Shown one piece after another: positions 1 to 18,591 of a stretch of 36,681 nucleotides of DNA. How positions within the stretch are numbered: position 1 is the stretch's first letter; the number at the start of each line of letters is the position of its first letter. Below the pieces are notes generated by a model. It was given only the letters and a program-made list of their open reading frames with translations, had not been told where the DNA came from and did no database searches. The stretch comes from Escherichia phage vB_EcoS-689R5. The translations under genes were made by a program, and so were the position numbers. The DNA lies in the sequence record ON470583; one strand, given 5' to 3'.

Positions 1-1263
1 CTATGGGATAAACTTATTTTTACCAATTGTATAAGGCGGTGCATAAGATTCTCGGCATGCTTCCAGATAATCCGACCACCACTGCATCATCGCTTTGCGG
101 GCTTCCAGGTGCTCTGCCTTATGAATATAAGCCATGCGCACGGTATTGCGCTCCTGATGACTCATCTGGCGTTCTACTGCGTCCTTTGCCCATAAACCCG
201 ATTCCATCAGCGCACTGCATGCCATTGCCCGGAAGCCGTGACCGCAGATATCCTTTTTCGTGTCGTAACCCATCACCCGCAGTGCCTTATTGACCGTGTT
301 TTCACACATTGGCTTATACGGGTTATGGTCGCCGGGGAAGATCAGTTCATTATTACCGGTGATATCCTTAATCTGTTTCAGAATGGCGATGGACTGTTCT
401 GAGAGGGGGACGATATGCGGCATTCGCATTTTTGCCCCGCGGCCGGAATAATGCACGCCAATAATGGGTTCTCGCGTCGCGGGTATCGTCCAGACTCGGT
501 TTGTGAAATCAATCTCTGACCAGCGGGCGAAACGCAGTTCACTGGAGCGAATGAACACATGCAGCATCAGCAGAACGGCATGCCGGGTCAGTTCACGGCC
601 CTGATGATATGCCCCAATACGTTCAAGCAGTTCAGGCAGCCGCTCCAGCGGCAGGGCAGGATAGTGCCGTCTGACAGGAGGTGTGGTCACGCCGCCAAGG
701 TTTGCTGCAGGGTTCGTATCGATTAACTCCTGATGGACCGCATGGCGTATTATGTTACTCAGGTGCTGCCGTGTGCGGGACGCAACCTCCAGCAGACCTT
801 TTTCCTCGATCCCTTTCTGCAGGTCAATGAAATGACGGGGTTTAAGTTCTGATACAGGTAGGTTCCCGATGACCGGAAAGATGTGATTGTTCAGGCTGGC
901 AAGCAGACGGTCGGCGGTGTTCTGCGACCATTTCCTGTTACTTTTATGCCACGCCAGCGCCACGTTTTTAAAAACTTTCTCCGGTGTTCGTGAGCCACGT
1001 ACAGCAGCCCGCTGCTGTACCGGGTTGATATTCAGCGCCAGCATTTTACGGATACCTTCACGTTGCTGTCGCGCATCAGACAGGGAGATGGCTGGATAGG
1101 CACCCAGCGCAATGCGGGATTCTTTACCGCTAATACGGTATTTGAGATACCAGTGGCGGGAGCCACCCGGCTTGACCCGCAGATACAGACTGTGAGAATC
1201 GGAGACTTTAAAGGGTTTATCAGAAGGCTTGAGGGTGCGGATTTTTGCGTCGGTAAGGGATAT
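1..1263 (-). CDS. P4-type tyrosine integrase, about 420 aa; the canonical start position reads ATA rather than ATG
   Basis: Continuous reverse frame 1263->1 translates ISLTDAKIRTLKPSDKPFKVSDSHSLYLRVKPGGSRHWYLKYRISGKESRIALGAYP... and joins the 347-aa track ORF (MLALNINP...), ending at TAG on bases 1-3. The ORF opens after TAA at 1279-1281 and has no ATG/GTG/TTG before Met at 1044. Confidence 0.8.
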   Translation of the reverse strand: MSLTDAKIRTLKPSDKPFKVSDSHSLYLRVKPGGSRHWYLKYRISGKESRIALGAYPAISLSDARQQREGIRKMLALNINPVQQRAAVRGSRTPEKVFKNVALAWHKSNRKWSQNTADRLLASLNNHIFPVIGNLPVSELKPRHFIDLQKGIEEKGLLEVASRTRQHLSNIIRHAVHQELIDTNPAANLGGVTTPPVRRHYPALPLERLPELLERIGAYHQGRELTRHAVLLMLHVFIRSSELRFARWSEIDFTNRVWTIPATREPIIGVHYSGRGAKMRMPHIVPLSEQSIAILKQIKDITGNNELIFPGDHNPYKPMCENTVNKALRVMGYDTKKDICGHGFRAMACSALMESGLWAKDAVERQMSHQERNTVRMAYIHKAEHLEARKAMMQWWSDYLEACRESYAPPYTIGKNKFIP

Positions 1264-1424
1264 ATGGGGGTCACTCCATTATCGAACTAACCCGACCCCA
1301 GATTTGACCACCAATTTTTCCCGATGCGTAGGGTAAAATCAAAATGCACCGAGAAGAGTTTTCACACTAACCTGTTGAATCAACATCAGATAAAGATTCG
1401 CAAGGATGCAAGAAAACAGAAAAT
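1..1424. mobile_element. Edge of an asn-tRNA-associated genomic island (P4-type integrase side); the island body lies left of the window
   Basis: P4-type integrase immediately 3' of tRNA-Asn on the same strand, the usual tRNA-island arrangement. Confidence 0.5.
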
Positions 1425-1500
1425 TGGCTCCTCTGACTGGACTCGAACCAGTGACATACGGATTAACAGTCCGCCGTTCTACCGACTGAACTACAGAGGA
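1425..1500 (-). tRNA. asnT: tRNA-Asn (anticodon GUU)
   Basis: Reverse complement reads UCCUCUGUAGUUCAGUCGGUAGAACGGCGGACUGUUAAUCCGUAUGUCACUGGUUCGAGUCCAGUCAGAGGAGCCA, a 76-nt cloverleaf. Which asn paralog is inferred from the mtfA neighbour. Confidence 0.93.
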
Positions 1501-1600
1501 ATCGTGAGAACGGGGCGCATATTACTTAGCGGTACCTTGTCTGTCAACACTAAATTTCATAAGCCATTTCAATTGGTTAATTAATCTGCAAAGTTGTTAA

Positions 1601-2398
1601 TTAATGAACATTCGTCGCCGAAAACGAGTCTGTATCATTAGCGTGATGCAGTCTCTGCAAAGGATCTTGTTGATAAAATTGGCAGAAACGTTGCCACAAT
1701 GAAGGGAAACGAGGAGCAAAAAGTTCTGGGGCGCTAAAGAAATATTCAGAAAGTACGGCAAAACATTCAGCAGGATCACTGGCAGCATAAGCATCGATGC
1801 TCGCCGCATTCTCGCCAACCAATTCGATTTCTTCCTGAATGTTGTTCATTGCAGCATGAAGATCGTGTTCCCAGCCAGCAACCTCACGCAACGGAATAAA
1901 GGGAACTCCGCTGGCGCGATCGCCGTTACGGGTGTCCAGCTTATGAGCGACTTCATGAATAATCAGGTTAAAACCAGAAGCATCAAAAGAATCTTGTATA
2001 TCCAACCAGTTCAAAACGATAGGCCCTTGCTGCCAGCTCTGACCTGACTGAACAATACGTTGGTTATGCACCAGACCGATATCGTCTTCCCATTCATCAT
2101 CGACCACAAATGGCGCAGGATAAATTAAGACTTCATGAAAACCATCCAGCCATTCCAGTCCTAACTCCAGAACGGGCAGGCAAAATAGAAGTGCTATCCG
2201 GCAGCTTCTTAATGAATTCAGCTCAAAGCCCTGTAAAGGAACAAGCCGTTTTTGCTGTAAAAAACGTTCGGCAAGAGTGACTAATTTGCTTTGTTCCTGT
2301 TCCGTCAGACACGTTAAAAGGGGGATCGATAGTGCTTCCTGCCAGGGAAGGGCAGTTTGATGTGCTGATTCTTGTACTTTCCAGGGCCACTTAATCAT
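1601..2398 (-). CDS. mtfA: MtfA (Mlc titration factor A), zinc-dependent peptidase
   Basis: Translation [20 protein letters not shown]... with HEVAH zinc-binding motif. Start taken at the second Met of the track ORF (265 aa). Confidence 0.88.
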
Positions 2399-2481
2399 CG
2401 TTTTGCTCGCAAACTCGTCACTTGAACAAAATTGCACGGACAGGGACTGTTAAAATGCCAAATTTCCTGGCATCATGGCAA

Positions 2482-2571
2482 CCATCTGAACGGAGAGATG
2501 CCGGAGCGGCTGAACGGACCGGTCTCGAAAACCGGAGTGGGGGCAACTCCACCGGGGGTTCAAATCCCCCT
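2482..2571 (+). tRNA. serU: tRNA-Ser (anticodon CGA); likely attachment-site tRNA for the adjacent prophage
   Basis: GGAGAGAUGCCGGAGCGGCUGAACGGACCGGUCUCGAAAACCGG...GGUUCAAAUCCCCCUCUCUCCGCCA, 90 nt with long variable arm and CGA anticodon loop. Confidence 0.92.
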
Positions 2572-2626
2572 CTCTCCGCCAAAATTCAATCACTTACACA
2601 TCATTAAGTCAGTGACAAAAATCACA

Positions 2627-2663
2627 CTTGGAATTACTTGGAATATTTTCTTGGAATATTTTC
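2627..2663. repeat. Tandem direct repeats (ttggaatattttc x2 plus a partial copy) inside the 3' end of int, near attL
   Basis: Read directly: cttggaatta / cttggaatattttc / ttggaatattttc; encodes ENIPRKYSK at the integrase C-terminus. Confidence 0.6.
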
Positions 2664-3659
2664 AGGTAACGGGACATCAAGTGTTGGTGAAACTTTAACC
2701 TTCCTGTCATAGATTAGCACTTGCCCTTCGGTTTTGTGACCAGAGAAAAGTTGCTTATCCCGGCTGCTTCCTTCATAGTCTGAAATTCCTTTCGCCTTCA
2801 GATCATGAAAGGTGAAGTCGGTTAAAATACCTGAAATTTTTCCAGCACGATTTCTTGCATCTACCCACATTTCGTTAAAGCCTTTGTACATATATCGGTT
2901 GCCGTATTGATTGCTGATCACATAGGCAGATTTTGGCAACTGTTTTGCTTTTTCGATCGCTGCCTGTAATCGTGGACTCCATGCTTTTATCTGTTTTTTT
3001 CCGGTTTTCCCTTGCTGGATGAATATCCCGTCGTTTCCAATCTGTTCCCATTTCAGCGATAACACATCGGAAACCCTCGCTGCACACAGATAGGCAATTT
3101 CCATTGCGATAAAAACAGGAAGAGGTGCAACGCTTAATACTGCCTGGTATTCTTTGTCGGTTACATATCGTTCGCGGTTTTTGGCCTTGAATTTACTTAC
3201 ACCTGCACATGGGTTAGCCTTCACGTACCCTCGCTCATACCCCCAACTGTAAACACGGGACATACTGCTTTTTTCATGGTTGGCTTGCGTTTTACTCTGC
3301 TCCCCTCTTTTGTCCATGTATCGACGGATGTGTTCTGGTTTTATGGAATCCGCTGGTACCTTACCGAATACGGCAAGCAACTTTTTTTGATGTTGCAGAT
3401 AATCTTTTTGTGTTCTTGGACTAAGGTCACTGTAATAGGCGCTGGCGAGGAATTTTTCCCACAAGCGACCGAATGTCATTGCACGATCGCGATTATTTAC
3501 AGTTTCCTCATACTTTTTCCATAAAGCAGCTAAACCATCCTTGATGGCGGTTAGTGTGACAGATTCTCTGGATGTTGGTTTCCATACATAACTATATTTA
3601 TTTGGGTATACATTTGGAGGTAATTTTTCGTGTTCAGGATTTTTCCTTCGTCTTCCCAT
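2634..3659 (-). CDS. Lambdoid tyrosine integrase
   Basis: 341-aa ORF adjacent to serU with an integrase-like C-terminal region (...FHDLKAKG...LFSGHKTEGQVLIYDRK) and an overlapping upstream xis-like gene. Confidence 0.88.
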   Translation of the reverse strand: MGRRRKNPEHEKLPPNVYPNKYSYVWKPTSRESVTLTAIKDGLAALWKKYEETVNNRDRAMTFGRLWEKFLASAYYSDLSPRTQKDYLQHQKKLLAVFGKVPADSIKPEHIRRYMDKRGEQSKTQANHEKSSMSRVYSWGYERGYVKANPCAGVSKFKAKNRERYVTDKEYQAVLSVAPLPVFIAMEIAYLCAARVSDVLSLKWEQIGNDGIFIQQGKTGKKQIKAWSPRLQAAIEKAKQLPKSAYVISNQYGNRYMYKGFNEMWVDARNRAGKISGILTDFTFHDLKAKGISDYEGSSRDKQLFSGHKTEGQVLIYDRKVKVSPTLDVPLPENIPRKYSK

Positions 3660-11507: not shown

Positions 11508-12036
11508 CCAATGGCGACCAGATATTTGCCCTATAACCGGACGTGCATTTTTCATGTGGATTGAGCATCCGACATTGGGAAATGTGCCGACGTATGGTGG
11601 CCCATTAGATAGCTACACCATCCCAACAAAGGACAGCGACGGTGAGTTTTCATGTGAGCGTTACGATCATGATTTCGGTGGCTGGGTAGAAAGCGAATGT
11701 CTTGGGTTATATCTGATTGATGATAAAGAACAATGCAGAGTCTACGAACTCGAGGAGCGCGTTAAAGAGCTGGAAGCGCGGGAAATAAAACCGGCCAAGG
11801 GCGAAGTTCTTGTCGTTGTATCTGGTTTTACTGGTTGCGGAAAAAGCGCCATTGCCGGGGAAATAGAAATCGCGATGAAGGCTATTGGTGTACCGGTTCA
11901 GTGGACTAATGGCGATGCAGAAAAGCGCATGACAGGAGCTGACTGGCTGACAGCAATTGAGATGTACAAACCAACTGTGCGCATTGTGGAAGTTAATGTG
12001 CCACGCGTCGCTGGCATTCGCATCAAAGGAGAGTGA
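11500..12036 (+). CDS. Hypothetical nin-region protein with a Walker-A-like motif (GFTGCGKS) in its C-terminal half
   Basis: GTG start overlaps the previous stop; motif VVVSGFTGCGKSAIAG. Confidence 0.5.
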   Translation: MSNQWRPDICPITGRAFFMWIEHPTLGNVPTYGGPLDSYTIPTKDSDGEFSCERYDHDFGGWVESECLGLYLIDDKEQCRVYELEERVKELEAREIKPAKGEVLVVVSGFTGCGKSAIAGEIEIAMKAIGVPVQWTNGDAEKRMTGADWLTAIEMYKPTVRIVEVNVPRVAGIRIKGE

Positions 12037-12037
12037 C

Positions 12038-12394
12038 GTGGAAATAAATCCAGAAGATGAGTTAAGCAATATCGTTTTATTTCCGGTAAAAGAGGATGAC
12101 CCACGTAATCAGGTTAATTTTCTTTATGAGCCATCGGAAAGACCATACTGCCATCACGCTTCTGTCCGGGTTGACGAAAAAGAGCGTCAGGTCCGCTGTA
12201 AAATCTGCGGTGCAGTTGTGGAGCCGTTTGACTGGATGCTCTCTGTGGCGAAAAGAGAAACCAGACTGGCAGATGATGTAAGGCTATTGCGCCAGGAGGA
12301 ACAGGAAAGGCGGAAAAATATAGAAAAGTTAATTCAGATTGAGCGTAACGCGAAAGCGCGGATACGCAGGGCGACAAAATCCAGAACTGAATAA
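12038..12394 (+). CDS. Hypothetical protein with a putative Cys/His zinc-binding motif
   Basis: GTG-initiated ORF MEINPEDELSNIVLFPV...CHHASVRVDEKERQVRCKICGAVVEPF...; basic C-terminus. Confidence 0.45.
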   Translation: MEINPEDELSNIVLFPVKEDDPRNQVNFLYEPSERPYCHHASVRVDEKERQVRCKICGAVVEPFDWMLSVAKRETRLADDVRLLRQEEQERRKNIEKLIQIERNAKARIRRATKSRTE

Positions 12395-12487
12395 TTAAAT
12401 TTAGCTCTGTTAAAAATTTAATCCTTAACCGGAGGGATTTCTGCACCTTCAGAACATCAGGAGGCCGCCCGAAAGGGCGGTAGTTAA

Positions 12488-12670
12488 ATGCGAAAGTTTA
12501 AAATAATTATTGAAACGGGAATAGCCGGTGGAGATTTCGAGGATGAATTCGAAGTGGATGATGATGCGACGCCTGATGAAATACATGACGAAGCAAAAGA
12601 TATTTTCTTTAACTACTGCAATTACTCATATCACGAAATAAAAGACGAAGAGGAAGAACAAAATGGCTGA
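12488..12670 (+). CDS. Hypothetical small acidic protein (60 aa)
   Basis: ORF MRKFKIIIETGIAGGDFEDEFEVDDD...; SD AGGAGG lies 5' of a GC hairpin that precedes the ATG. Confidence 0.45.
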   Translation: MRKFKIIIETGIAGGDFEDEFEVDDDATPDEIHDEAKDIFFNYCNYSYHEIKDEEEEQNG

Positions 12671-12839
12671 TTCTGGTTCAACTAAATATAACGCCAGTTT
12701 TGAAGAATGGCATGAACTGTTAATGGATTATGCAGAGTTACGCGGTGGAAGTGCCGCTGATGCTGAAGCATGGCGTGATGATTATGAAGCAGGGAAAACA
12801 CCGGTCGAAGCATATTGTGATGAGTGGGGCGATGAATGA
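12663..12839 (+). CDS. Hypothetical small protein (58 aa); absent from the supplied ORF track
   Basis: Manual translation MADSGSTKYNASFEEWHELLMDYAELRGGSAADAEAWRDDYEAGKTPVEAYCDEWGDE; start and stop overlap the neighbouring genes. Confidence 0.4.
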   Translation: MADSGSTKYNASFEEWHELLMDYAELRGGSAADAEAWRDDYEAGKTPVEAYCDEWGDE

Positions 12840-13195
12840 GCGAGATTAATTATCAGGAAGGGCATGAAAAGGCAGGGCAGGCAAAACCAGTGGCATGGCG
12901 ATATCGCTACGTGAAAAAAGGCGTTACAGACTTTCAGGGGAAGCAGTGGGTTGGTGACTGGAAATATGTCCCGACAAAAGAGGATTGCAACGACAGGCCG
13001 AGCTATGAGATTCAGGCCTTATTCACTGTCCCGCCTGTGCCACTGACACCAGAAGGATTGATTAAAGCAGTGCGTTTCTATGAACAGGTAAAGCGTGAGA
13101 ATCCGCCAGTCGAAACCGGAGCATGGAAAGACGCTGTTGACTGGGTGCTCAAAGAGGCTTGCCAGGCTGTAAACATTGGTACCAAAGGAGATTGA
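12836..13195 (+). CDS. Hypothetical nin-region protein (119 aa)
   Basis: ORF with start overlapping the upstream stop (ATGA). Confidence 0.5.
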   Translation: MSEINYQEGHEKAGQAKPVAWRYRYVKKGVTDFQGKQWVGDWKYVPTKEDCNDRPSYEIQALFTVPPVPLTPEGLIKAVRFYEQVKRENPPVETGAWKDAVDWVLKEACQAVNIGTKGD

Positions 13196-13196
13196 T

Positions 13197-13637
13197 ATGA
13201 CCACTTTTACCGACAAAGAACTGATTAAAGAAATCAAAGAGCGCATAGGCAGCTTGGACGTTCGAGACAATATTGAGCGCCGTGCTTATGAAATTGCTCT
13301 GGCATCGCTGGAAGCAGAGGCAGTTATGTTCTGTATATCAGGACAAAATGTAGATTCAGAAGAACATGTATCAACCAGCAAAGCGGTTGTTGATGCCTGG
13401 GTTGAAGAATGGAATCAGGTTGACGGAAGTCCTGGCGAACCACTGTACAAAACTATGCCACTCTACTATCACGCTGCCTTGCCAGCGCCGGTAGTGCCGG
13501 AAGAAGCAACTCCGGAAAACGTAGAAATGCTCTCTGGCTATGTTTCCACGTACAAATTAACCGATAGCGAGCGCGATATTGCTGCCGAAATATGGAACGC
13601 CTGCCGCGCCGCTATGCTTCATGGGAAAGGAGAGTGA
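13197..13637 (+). CDS. Hypothetical protein, member of the MTTFT...ALASLEAE paralog family (copy 1)
   Basis: MTTFTDKELIKEIKERIG...[15 protein letters not shown]...; ATG 7 nt after AAAGGAG. Confidence 0.5.
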   Translation: MTTFTDKELIKEIKERIGSLDVRDNIERRAYEIALASLEAEAVMFCISGQNVDSEEHVSTSKAVVDAWVEEWNQVDGSPGEPLYKTMPLYYHAALPAPVVPEEATPENVEMLSGYVSTYKLTDSERDIAAEIWNACRAAMLHGKGE

Positions 13638-13638
13638 T

Positions 13639-13902
13639 ATGGCAACTTTAACAAAAAAAGAACGGGCATGGTTGAACGAATTACAGGACGTTCTTGATCG
13701 CTGCCCATCACCGAAAAAAATTGGTTTTTACACCATTGGCGATAAAAGCATTTACCTGTATGACCTGCGCCGCATGGATGAAATCATGGAGGCTCTTGAT
13801 AATCGTTCGTCAATGGATTGGTGTGTTGCTGTCCATGATATGAATGCAGGGTTTGATGAAAAGATTTTGTTCCCCTCATCAGTTGAAAGCACTGCGGGTT
13901 AA
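13639..13902 (+). CDS. Hypothetical protein (87 aa)
   Basis: MATLTKKERAWLNELQDVLDRCPSPKKIGFYTIGDKSIYLYDL...; preceded by GGAGAG. Confidence 0.45.
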   Translation: MATLTKKERAWLNELQDVLDRCPSPKKIGFYTIGDKSIYLYDLRRMDEIMEALDNRSSMDWCVAVHDMNAGFDEKILFPSSVESTAG

Positions 13903-13912
13903 GGAGTAACAC

Positions 13913-14080
13913 ATGACCACTATTACCAAAGAACGTATTGAATTGTTCATTAAAAATCCGCTTGAAAACGGGCTTACCCGTGGTGAACAAATGGAACTGG
14001 CACGGATTGCGCTGGCATCGCTGGAAGCAGAGCCGGTTGTGTTCTGGTTTGAAAAATATCAAGAAGGGGCTACGGCATGA
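13913..14080 (+). CDS. Hypothetical small protein, MTTFT...ALASLEAE paralog family (copy 2, 55 aa); absent from the ORF track
   Basis: Manual translation [55 protein letters not shown]; AAGGAG SD. Confidence 0.45.
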
Positions 14081-14421
14081 CGACTTTTACCAGAGAGCAG
14101 TTAATAGCTCACGCAGAGGAGACTATTGAAGCACAGAGACTGTGCATACCGGGCACAATCGACCATGACATCATCCGCACATATAAGATGGATATTGCTG
14201 TTCTGGAAATCGCACTGGTATCGCTGGCAGCAGAGCCAGCCGGTAAATTGCATGAATACAAACCAGTGGGATATCAGCGTCTGGTCGATGAGTTAACCAT
14301 GCTGGTAAAGCAGTTAACCTGGCAACTGAGGAAAGCGAAGCCAGACTGCAAATTACCGGATAAGGCGATGAGTTATCTGGAGCGGAACGGACTGATAAGC
14401 GTGGAGGATATTTTACGATGA
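14077..14421 (+). CDS. Hypothetical protein, MTTFT...ALASLEAE paralog family (copy 3)
   Basis: [22 protein letters not shown]...[14 protein letters not shown]...; start overlaps the previous stop. Confidence 0.5.
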
Positions 14422-14711
14422 CTGGCCTGAGGCATTTACAACGGCAGGAATCGCAATGGCTGTGGCGCTGGTGGTGTATTCGATTTGCCGCTGGGGATAA
14501 AAACGGTTTGCGGGAAAAGGAGAGTTAAGTAGAATTGCAGCGGGTGCTTGAGGCTATCTGTCTCAGGCATGAACACCAAAAGGCAGATAGAGAAAAGCCC
14601 CAGTTAACATTACGCGTCCTGCAAGACGCTTAACATTAATCTGAGGCTCAATCTATGAACGGCAAATCTAGGTTAGCCTCTTACGTGCCGAAAGGCAAGG
14701 AGAAGCAGGCT

Positions 14712-14867
14712 ATGAAGCAGCAAAAGGCGATGTTAATCGCCCTGATCGTCATCTGTTTAACCGTCATTGTGACGGCACTGGTAACGAGGAAAGACCTCTG
14801 CGAGGTACGAATCCGAACCGGCCAGACGGAGGTCGCTGTCTTCACAGCTTACGAACCTGAGGAGTAA
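14712..14867 (+). CDS. hokD: Hok/Gef-family type I toxin (51 aa, hokD/relF-like)
   Basis: MKQQKAMLIALIVICLTVIVTALVTRKDLCEVRIRTGQTEVAVFTAYEPEE; the track ORF extends in frame upstream (MNGKSRLASYVPKGKEKQA), a possible mok-like leader. No relBE is seen upstream. Confidence 0.8.
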   Translation: MKQQKAMLIALIVICLTVIVTALVTRKDLCEVRIRTGQTEVAVFTAYEPEE

Positions 14868-18281: not shown

Positions 18282-18357
18282 GGCCCTTTAGCTCAGTGGT
18301 GAGAGCGAGCGACTCATAATCGCCAGGTCGCTGGTTCAAATCCAGCAAGGGCCACCA
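18282..18357 (+). tRNA. tRNA-Ile2-like (anticodon CAU; ileX/ileZ-type, could also read as tRNA-Met)
   Basis: GGCCCUUUAGCUCAGUGGUGAGAGCGAGCGACUCAUAAUCGCCAGGUCGCUGGUUCAAAUCCAGCAAGGGCCACCA; clean cloverleaf with CUCAUAA anticodon loop. Confidence 0.8.
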
Positions 18358-18358
18358 G

Positions 18359-18435
18359 CCGCCACTAGCTCATCAGGAAAGAGCGTCAACCCTTTAAGTT
18401 GAGTGTGCGAGGTTCGAGTCCCCGGTGGCGGTCCA
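18359..18435 (+). tRNA. Atypical tRNA-like gene (anticodon loop CCUUUAA; isotype uncertain, possibly UUU/Lys-like or a pseudo-tRNA)
   Basis: Perfect 7-bp acceptor stem (CCGCCAC/GUGGCGG), U8-A9, D arm, TUCGAGU T-loop and encoded CCA; but C at position 33 and one T-stem mismatch. Confidence 0.5.
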
Positions 18436-18437
18436 GT

Positions 18438-18513
<76 letters not shown>

Positions 18514-18516
18514 TAT

Positions 18517-18591
<75 letters not shown>

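Follow-up and report, generated by a model that had tools for sequence, protein, structure and literature searches.

Three small genes (A, B and C) of Escherichia phage vB_EcoS-689R5 (sequence record ON470583; the whole stretch of 36,681 nt that was analysed is referred to as the window) are most probably separate mosaics which were assembled from a large pool of phage modules and shuffled in frame at conserved linker DNA. We have demonstrated that their N-terminal parts are homologous, that the junctions are chimeric, that breakpoints are clustered and that the modules occur in diverse combinations. The part shared by the three proteins is a 40-55-aa N-terminal module (N-module), which is also found in P22 EaA, in E. 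coli YfdT and in many DUF550/DUF551 'Eaa' proteins.

Organization of the locus

The region 12400-14700 was found by nucleotide comparison to be 100% identical to many E. coli chromosomes, e.g. MLI109 and several ST131 strains, and the window is an E. coli prophage. According to the RefSeq annotation, the MLI109 prophage adjoins tRNA-Ser and mtfA. The prophage carries in this order an integrase gene (frameshifted), a RecE-like exonuclease gene, dicB/ydfC, repressor/cro, YdaT and replication genes, then several small ORFs in a row, followed by hokD, DUF968, RusA, Q, four tRNAs, lysis genes and HK97-type head genes. Genes A, B and C lie within the small-ORF run, with the replication genes on one side and hokD/RusA/Q on the other. 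In position, this run corresponds to the nin region of lambda, and naming it so in the original prediction was fair. The three ORFs were found at the coordinates that had been given for them, and the same starts are used in the RefSeq annotation of the 100%-identical MLI109 locus. The main features are the following:

12836-13195, + strand: upstream ORF (119 aa), matching phrog_660 positions 34-143 (E 2.9e-45)
13184-13199, + strand: gene junction AAAGGAGATTGATATG (RBS, upstream-ORF stop codon, A start codon), from direct-repeat families D2-D4
13197-13637, + strand: gene A (146 aa), YfdT-type N-module followed by modules M2 and M3 and ending in ...HGKGE and the stop codon (phrog_5117)
13639-13902, + strand: ORF D (87 aa), an interleaved, unrelated cassette (phrog_1714, E 9.6e-51)
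13913-14080, + strand: gene B (55 aa), EaA-type N-module and the 3' end of an HNH gene, from identity to P22 eaA and ArgO145
14077-14421, + strand: gene C (114 aa), long N-module, linker and terminal module, from the AF2 model and the N- and C-terminal stretches of phrog_660

The upstream ORF consists of an Ead/Ea22-type start (MSEINYQ), a 'PVAW...PPVPLTPE' module and a 'GLIKAVRFYEQVK...AVDWVLKEACQAVN' module, and its C-terminus (...KGD and stop) falls within the RBS/stop/start junction. It had zero Pfam matches and thus no Ead_Ea22 domain. Its M3-type module also stands behind A-like bodies in P0215-P0226 and P0278, and the ORF is drawn from the same module pool as A, B and C. Relatives of the junction at 13184 were found by the repeat search at 12025, 13626, 13900 and 14516, the conserved form AAAGGAGAGTGAnATG being present at 12025, 13184, 13626 and 14516, and various upstream junction types pair with various N-module types. 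Apart from the junction and the first ~8 codons (MATLTKKE), ORF D has nothing in common with its neighbours; repeat D2 in its start region is 82% identical to the start region of A, homology-block edges lie at 13626/13635, and a MATLTKEE start was found on a C-type module in P0452. A scan for promoters and terminators gave nothing above the shuffled expectation. A and C do not conserve the sole hairpin-like match in the motif region (14020-14037), for which reason a regulatory-RNA reading of the motif was set aside.

Homology of the shared start and motif

The window contains three copies of the 15-nt sequence ATGACnACTWTTACC, which start at 13197, 13913 and 14077, as against 0.01 expected from shuffling. 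Similarly, the 24-nt motif GCNCTGGYATCGCTGGMAGCAGAG, which encodes (I)AL(A/V)SL(E/A)AE, occurs three times (at 13296, 14009 and 14212; 0.00 expected), and both repeat families were recovered by a repeat search. The matching DNA repeats that had been described are therefore present, although two of the positions proposed for them (about 14010 and 14210) were off by 1-2 nt. The motif, which had been placed about 40 residues in, occupies residues 33-41 in A, 32-40 in B and 45-53 in C:

13293-13319, + strand: motif copy 1, IALASLEAE, putative recombination joint (repeats; HSP starts 13292/3, HSP ends 13318-13333)
14006-14032, + strand: motif copy 2, IALASLEAE, putative crossover point of the B chimera (repeats; 72 HSP ends at 14022-14046)
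14209-14235, + strand: motif copy 3, IALVSLAAE (repeat search and motif count)

The N-termini of A, B and C all matched the same independent PHROG profiles (phrog_3323, 60, 660 and 5117). The matches included phrog_5117 for A (E 1.3e-43, covering residues 1-144), phrog_3323 for B (E 1.3e-19) and phrog_660 for C (E 8.2e-43). An HMM of 15 N-module types, which was built with relatives of all three genes included, detected exactly the A, B and C sites in the window (E 2e-14 to 3e-16). The profile and alignment check (PHROG, HMM) thus confirmed that the shared N-terminus is a matter of true homology, not of chance, and the C-termini of the three proteins do differ as had been claimed. All three proteins match the N-terminal part of PHROGs 660, 5117, 3323 and 60, A spanning phrog_5117 and C matching both ends of phrog_660; these PHROGs are, however, automatic clusters which mix shuffled modules and hold no functional information.

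Modular composition of genes A, B and C

Gene A could be divided into three modules separated by conserved stretches:

13197-13319, + strand: A N-module (aa 1-41), two predicted helices (megablast blocks, YfdT sequence, AF2)
13320-13478, + strand: module M2 (AVMFCISGQNV...PLYYHAA), from homologue comparison; the AF2 model is poor here
13479-13505, + strand: linker LPAPVVPEE, putative second joint (HSP starts 13481/2, HSP ends 13505)
13506-13625, + strand: module M3 (ATPENVEML...IWNACRAAMLHG) (HSP starts 13592/3, HSP ends 13621)
13593-13625, + strand: putative third joint WNACRAAMLHG, within M3

Dozens of E. coli megablast matches span exactly 13197-13318, i.e. from the ATG to the motif end, and lie under yfdT/DUF551 genes, so that this N-module stands out as a discrete unit; in yfdT and DUF551 genes elsewhere, the A-type N-modules are 87.7-98% identical in nucleotide sequence. 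In YfdT of the cryptic prophage CPS-53/KpLE1 (101 aa), residues 1-42 correspond to the N-module of A (87.7% nt identity over 13197-13318), whereas the YfdT tail (DEREAYELFMEKRF...) is unrelated to the A body, and this YfdT-specific tail is absent from A. At least 12 other N-module types, as well as Ead/Ea22-type N-domains, were found to precede the A body (from AVMFCISGQNV on). Both M2 and M3 have alternatives among the homologues, and every M2 alternative terminates in (Y)AAPPAPVVPE. In P0195, P0125 and P0210, the A sequence past ...WNACRAAML runs on into DUF551 instead of reaching the KGE stop. Gene A is an intact three-module product without the DUF551 end that is present in its relatives. 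The exact A protein is encoded on at least 999 contigs, 2641 homologues with modular variants were found, and the PGAP call for A comprises codons 1-42 only and is flagged as a pseudogene.

In gene B, the N-module (aa 1-40, 13913-14032) is followed by 15 last codons derived from an HNH gene (14033-14077). The DNA identity to P22 eaA sets in ~18 nt before the ATG and ends at 14032, and the identity to ArgO145 begins at about 14022, spans the HNH 3' end and continues through the C orthologue, immediately upstream of which the HNH gene sits in ArgO145. The ArgO145 HNH endonuclease (ARW58326) ends in exactly the same 15 residues as B, and B residues 31-54 match the C-terminal part of the phrog_2118 HNH profile. 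The HNH catalytic core is absent in B, where nothing more of the ArgO145-type HNH gene than its last 15 codons is left. The N-module of B shows 86-95% aa identity to EaA residues 1-40/44. On these identities, B is a chimera of the EaA N-module and the tail of an HNH gene; recombination would have kept the EaA N-module alone and joined it to the last 15 codons of the HNH gene. In strain MS20645, an EaA-like ORF of 282 aa with a DUF551 end begins at the same gene start, and RefSeq shows DUF551 pseudogene fragments there. Although it is widespread (at least 1000 contigs), B is most likely non-functional or an N-module-only leftover.

Gene C consists of an N-module of 53 residues (aa 1-53, 14077-14235) and, after the linker, of the terminal module ELTMLVKQL...LISVEDILR (14290-14418), and its product is 99% aa identical to the phage ArgO145 orthologue. 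The C tail was also found behind other N-modules (P0466 with a B-type N-module, P0471 and P0484) and closes Eaa-type proteins of 190-200 aa, while the C N-module also opens the DUF551 proteins P0499 and P0501. C is thus an N-module joined to a terminal module which ends longer proteins elsewhere.

Spread, diversity and predicted structure of the N-module

A tblastn search found the module at the start of EaA, HkaE, 'DUF551 domain-containing' and 'DUF550 domain-containing' genes in 99 phage records, whose hosts are Salmonella, Escherichia, Yersinia, Edwardsiella and Enterobacter. In a set of 1.84 billion representative proteins, the profile recovered 350 module-bearing clusters at the 50% identity level. 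The module-bearing proteins were 53-457 aa long; of the 150 clusters listed, 146 had the module from residue 1 on and four had it from residue 2 or 8 on. A scan of genome contigs confirmed at least 5 loci. Scans of A, B and C showed that the N-module has no Pfam or NCBIfam model.

At least 15 types of N-module, 40-68 aa in length, were distinguished. They have only the first ~8 and the last ~9 residues in common, i.e. MTT(F/I)T(K/R)E in the first 5-8 codons and (I)ALASLEAE followed by proline at the end, and their centre is hypervariable. Among 123 representatives with the B-type N-module, dozens of unrelated continuations begin directly past SLEAEP; DUF551 is present in 34 of the 123 and the dATP/dGTP pyrophosphohydrolase domain in 15. 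A few joins lie some residues off the motif, e.g. SLEREQ|IRHEH and SLAAVS|DERAAY.

The structure prediction that had been suggested as a check was carried out. The AlphaFold model of C (mean pLDDT 81) contains an antiparallel two-helix hairpin (helices 6-23 and 30-51, pLDDT 83-95), whose second helix stops at the motif and is followed by proline. The AF2 model of A is poor (pLDDT 52.8) and contains the same two helices (6-19 and 26-39) at low confidence. PDB was searched at the sequence level with C and with the profiles of the A family and of the N-module, and nothing significant was obtained. A Foldseek search of PDB and BFVD with the C model returned only generic alpha-hairpins, none at E <= 0.001, so that the hairpin was not placed in any fold family. 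With low confidence, it might be supposed that the hairpin serves the variable C-terminal parts as a handle for oligomerisation or docking. The conserved ends could alternatively come from structural need (helix start, helix C-cap and proline) together with recent common ancestry.

Breakpoints at conserved linkers

The window was compared with 90 related loci to locate the edges of homology blocks. In gene A, the HSP edges lie at 13292/3 and 13318-33 (motif), at 13481/2 and 13505 (LPAPVVPEE) and at 13592/3 and 13621 (WNACRAAMLHG). Elsewhere, they were found at 13626/13635 (RBS-stop-start junction) and at 13898-13913 and 14022-46, the two edges of the B module. Adjacent homology blocks overlap by 23-27 nt on conserved stretches, which is expected from homologous crossovers within them. 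Moreover, the identity of synonymous codon pairs among the centre types was 0.71 in the motif, as against 0.33 expected from the codon usage of the window, and 0.68 as against 0.35 expected in the first 7 codons, with only 6 module types available for this test and with codon conservation at the 5' end possibly reflecting a translation-initiation constraint. This excess means that the DNA itself is conserved beyond the need of the protein sequence. The idea that the repeats could drive recombination is thus supported by the position of breakpoints on conserved linkers and by the synonymous over-conservation: the repeated DNA coincides with the breakpoints, recombination being deduced from this pattern. 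The conserved DNA is probably the recombination substrate itself.

Such shuffling probably proceeds as follows. The module pool is shared among enterobacterial temperate phages and includes P22 EaA, HK620 HkaE, YfdT, the DUF550/DUF551 'Eaa' proteins and Ead/Ea22-like proteins. The conserved N-module ends, LPAPVVPEE, WNACRAAML and the conserved junction would provide short in-frame stretches of DNA homology, inside which phage or host recombination would cross over repeatedly. Because these stretches are in frame, modules would be swapped and the reading frame would remain intact. This is in agreement with the relaxed homologous (Rad52-like) recombination of lambdoid phages, which exchanges small fragments flanked by short, partly conserved sequences and which the sizes and overlaps of the blocks observed here fit. 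Short diverged sequences are efficient substrates for the Red, RecET and Erf systems of phages, the exchanged fragments have a median length of about 400-500 bp, and among lambdoid phages and defective prophages the exchange of small gene fragments is more frequent than that of whole functional modules (PMC3945230). The present locus differs from ordinary lambdoid mosaic exchange in that the joints lie inside reading frames with the frame kept, so that protein modules and not whole genes are shuffled. As to a recombinase in the window, the RecE-like 'exonuclease' is annotated and a RecT-type annealing protein was not identified.

The conserved stretches might also be explained by protein constraint only, i.e. 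the hairpin would need its conserved ends (N-cap, C-cap), random illegitimate joins would be sorted by selection and the repeats would have no mechanistic role. The confidently predicted helical hairpin with the second helix ending exactly at the motif before a proline, the almost always strictly N-terminal position of the module and the joins which fall a few residues off the motif all agree with this explanation. We nevertheless consider it unlikely, since the conservation of synonymous codons in the motif is about double the level predicted from codon usage, the 23-27-nt overlaps of block edges lie exactly on the conserved stretches and the conservation reaches into the non-coding RBS/stop junction.

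Relation to known systems and possible function

The three genes belong with the mosaic accessory genes of the EaA, YfdT, Ead-Ea22 and DUF551 kind, which is already known; their sequences are common in E. coli and they do not constitute a new system. Residues 1-40 of P22 EaA (NP_059588, 317 aa) are nearly identical to residues 1-40 of B. The EaA-type N-terminal module of ~40 aa is thus present in B by sequence and in A and C at the profile level. Both EaA and the genes studied here are early, non-essential accessory genes, but EaA lies in the pL 'ea' region whereas A, B and C lie between the replication genes and Q. EaA runs into dATP/dGTP pyrophosphohydrolase (DUF550) and DUF551 domains, neither of which A, B and C have: no Pfam match to the former (PF04447) was found in them at E <= 0.1, and DUF551 (PF04448; present in YfdS and at the EaA C-terminus, DGWISCSERMP...HWMPLPEPP) was also absent according to Pfam. 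However, the relatives P0195, P0499 and P0501 of A and C, which have the same upstream modules, do have DUF551.

Ea22 of lambda and Stx phages (ead/Ea22-like, PF13935) has likewise a common N-terminal part and swapped C-terminal domains including DUF551; the family has been described as mosaic and DUF551 as a portable domain (PMC10834534). Ead/Ea22 N-domains ending in ...LLxxLEAE are even joined to the very body of gene A (P0203, P0278). On the other hand, Ea22 has a long coiled coil, whereas the N-module of A, B and C is a short predicted hairpin, and no Pfam match to the Ead_Ea22 domain was found in A, B, C or the ORF at 12836-13195. The pro-lysogenic role of Ea22 is not transferable to A, B and C.

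The suggestion that the genes belong to a host-interaction or immunity-type family found no direct support. Neither Pfam nor NCBIfam gave a match for A, B, C or ORF D, and no defence, toxin or immunity signature was found in the PADLOC scan. The locus resembles polymorphic toxin cassettes in architecture only, having a constant N-terminus, a demarcation motif and a variable C-terminus. A toxin domain with a cognate immunity gene was not found here (Pfam, NCBIfam, PADLOC), and the N-module is a predicted hairpin of 40 aa without a signal or delivery domain. A polymorphic-effector system could still be imagined, in which the constant N-module would act as an adaptor on one host or phage hub and carry interchangeable C-terminal effectors (anti-defence or host takeover), with the motif in the role of the VENN-type demarcation motifs of polymorphic toxins. 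The sharp demarcation between the constant N-terminus and dozens of unrelated C-termini, one enzyme domain included, would suit such a system, as would the location of the genes in early accessory regions and the fact that yfdS or yfdT is needed together with yfdQ and yfdR for the multicopy inhibition of chromosomal replication initiation (PMC4776307). YfdT did not bind DnaA (PMC4776307). In view of the missing defence, toxin and immunity signatures, the absent secretion or delivery domain and the hypervariable centre of the N-module, which fits poorly with one common hub, this explanation appears quite improbable.

It is also conceivable, if rather doubtful, that the N-module and the in-frame joints form a selected cassette-exchange architecture, in which a docking or oligomerisation hairpin presents swappable effectors and the linker DNA is kept for rapid reshuffling. 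If true, this would be a phage counterpart of polymorphic-effector systems, with in-frame reshuffling taking place at co-infection or prophage encounters.

As an instance of gene shuffling in phages the locus is clear but ordinary, and it offers a compact example of the shuffling of protein modules at conserved in-frame linkers in lambdoid phages. A very common prophage N-module of 40-55 aa without a Pfam or NCBIfam model matters for annotation and comparative genomics. Since this model is missing, pipelines mislabel intact mosaics such as gene A as 'DUF551, partial' pseudogenes and count leftovers of recombination, B among them, as genes. The unmodelled N-module and the sharply defined in-frame joints are therefore worth recording for annotation and recombination studies, and the breakpoints are sharp enough for the design of recombination experiments.

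Origin of the three copies

According to the original prediction, the three genes arose by tandem duplication in situ followed by C-terminal diversification, i.e. one ancestral gene was triplicated in the prophage and the C-termini then diverged. Three same-strand copies within 1.2 kb with a common start and common motif DNA could be taken in this way, as could a 41-nt stretch that is 90% identical between A and B. The nearest-relative comparisons contradicted this origin. Among the N-modules of A, B and C, the identity is only 36-49% at the protein level and 57-67% at the DNA level, whereas each of them has 88-100% identical DNA copies on other gene bodies elsewhere in other phages, and thus the three copies are not mutually closest relatives. 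The C-terminal parts are not diversified versions of one sequence: they are unrelated modules with homologues of their own elsewhere, which were probably acquired by recombination, that of B from the 3' end of an HNH gene.

The copy-number survey that had been suggested also counted against local tandem duplication. In 80 IMG/VR loci, which were selected for the presence of the B-type module, 51 had one copy, 21 had two and 8 had three, always on one strand and in differing combinations, and the gene in the 'A position' bears different N-modules in different loci. Taken together, these results make tandem duplication very improbable. Chance similarity among short low-complexity helical peptides can be dismissed as practically excluded: pairwise BLASTP of A, B and C was weak (E 2e-4, 0.024 and 1e-5), but zero start or motif matches were expected in the shuffles, independent PHROG profiles matched all three genes and the HMM E-values were about 1e-14 to 1e-16.

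Mutual exclusivity of N-module types within one phage was ruled out as well, since locus L028 has two B-type modules.

Mobility and mosaicism of the cassette run

The Stx phage ArgO145 carries the same cassette run as the window at 12488-14421 (the DUF7167 gene, the 58-aa ORF and so on to gene C) in its early-left 'ea' region, and the P22 gene eaA also lies within the ea region. In contrast to both phages, the cassette run of the window is found in the early-right, nin-like region. It follows that this cassette block has changed places between the early-left and early-right accessory regions. Within and around the run, one gene junction is recurrent:

12025-12043, 13184-13199, 13626-13644 and 14516-14534: junction AAAGGAGAGTGAnATG

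It encodes a ...KGE* C-terminus, the RBS and the start codon of the next gene. After the copy at 14516 no gene is evident; this copy is possibly a relic.

Two or three copies of the N-module, the 40-55 aa N-terminal module common to genes A, B and C, occur within a single reading frame in P0330 (186 aa) and P0359 (332 aa), two of the representative proteins from the N-module profile search. These proteins are apparently read-through fusions of neighbouring module-bearing genes, and similar fusions, of B with C, were found in P0437 and P0438. Mosaicism may also bear on the annotation of gene A (13197-13637). The PGAP call at 13197-13323 (NL412_RS10885, in the RefSeq-annotated locus L001) covers only codons 1-42 and was designated a pseudogene 'missing C-terminus'. 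The gene A ORF is unbroken (146 aa) and its phrog_5117 match is full length. Mosaicism seems to have misled this pseudogene call, since the N-module is the only part over which the best protein evidence aligns.

Flanking region and prophage context

The +1 frame past gene C holds, at 14419-14508, what is left of a small hydrophobic peptide (...AFTTAGIAMAVALVVYSICRWG*). The peptide is joined to C-like proteins in P0446 and P0464, and its end (YSICRWG) directly follows the conserved motif closing the N-module in P0114, a pattern that points to additional deletions or frameshifts here. Two other features lie downstream of gene C:

14542-14867: hok/sok type I toxin-antitoxin locus, directly 3' of gene C
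18282-18588: four tRNA genes, flanked by the Q antiterminator and the lysis genes

The former pairs a Hok/Mok-like ORF (14655-14867), annotated as hokD in RefSeq, with the sok RNA (Rfam RF01794 match of 112 bits). The tRNAs are assigned in RefSeq to Ile, Lys, Thr and Gly. According to the L001 annotation of window 1-3659, the prophage integrase is frameshifted and the immunity region contains dicB, ydfC, ydfB and DUF1391 genes similar to those of Qin/Rac-type cryptic prophages. On the basis of the frameshifted integrase and these immunity genes, the prophage element may be defective.

Two contigs binned into a Segatella copri MAG (JAJXBQ010000377 and JAJXBQ010000292) encode gene B as well, with 100% identity. 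The contigs are most probably E. coli prophage DNA that was binned in error.
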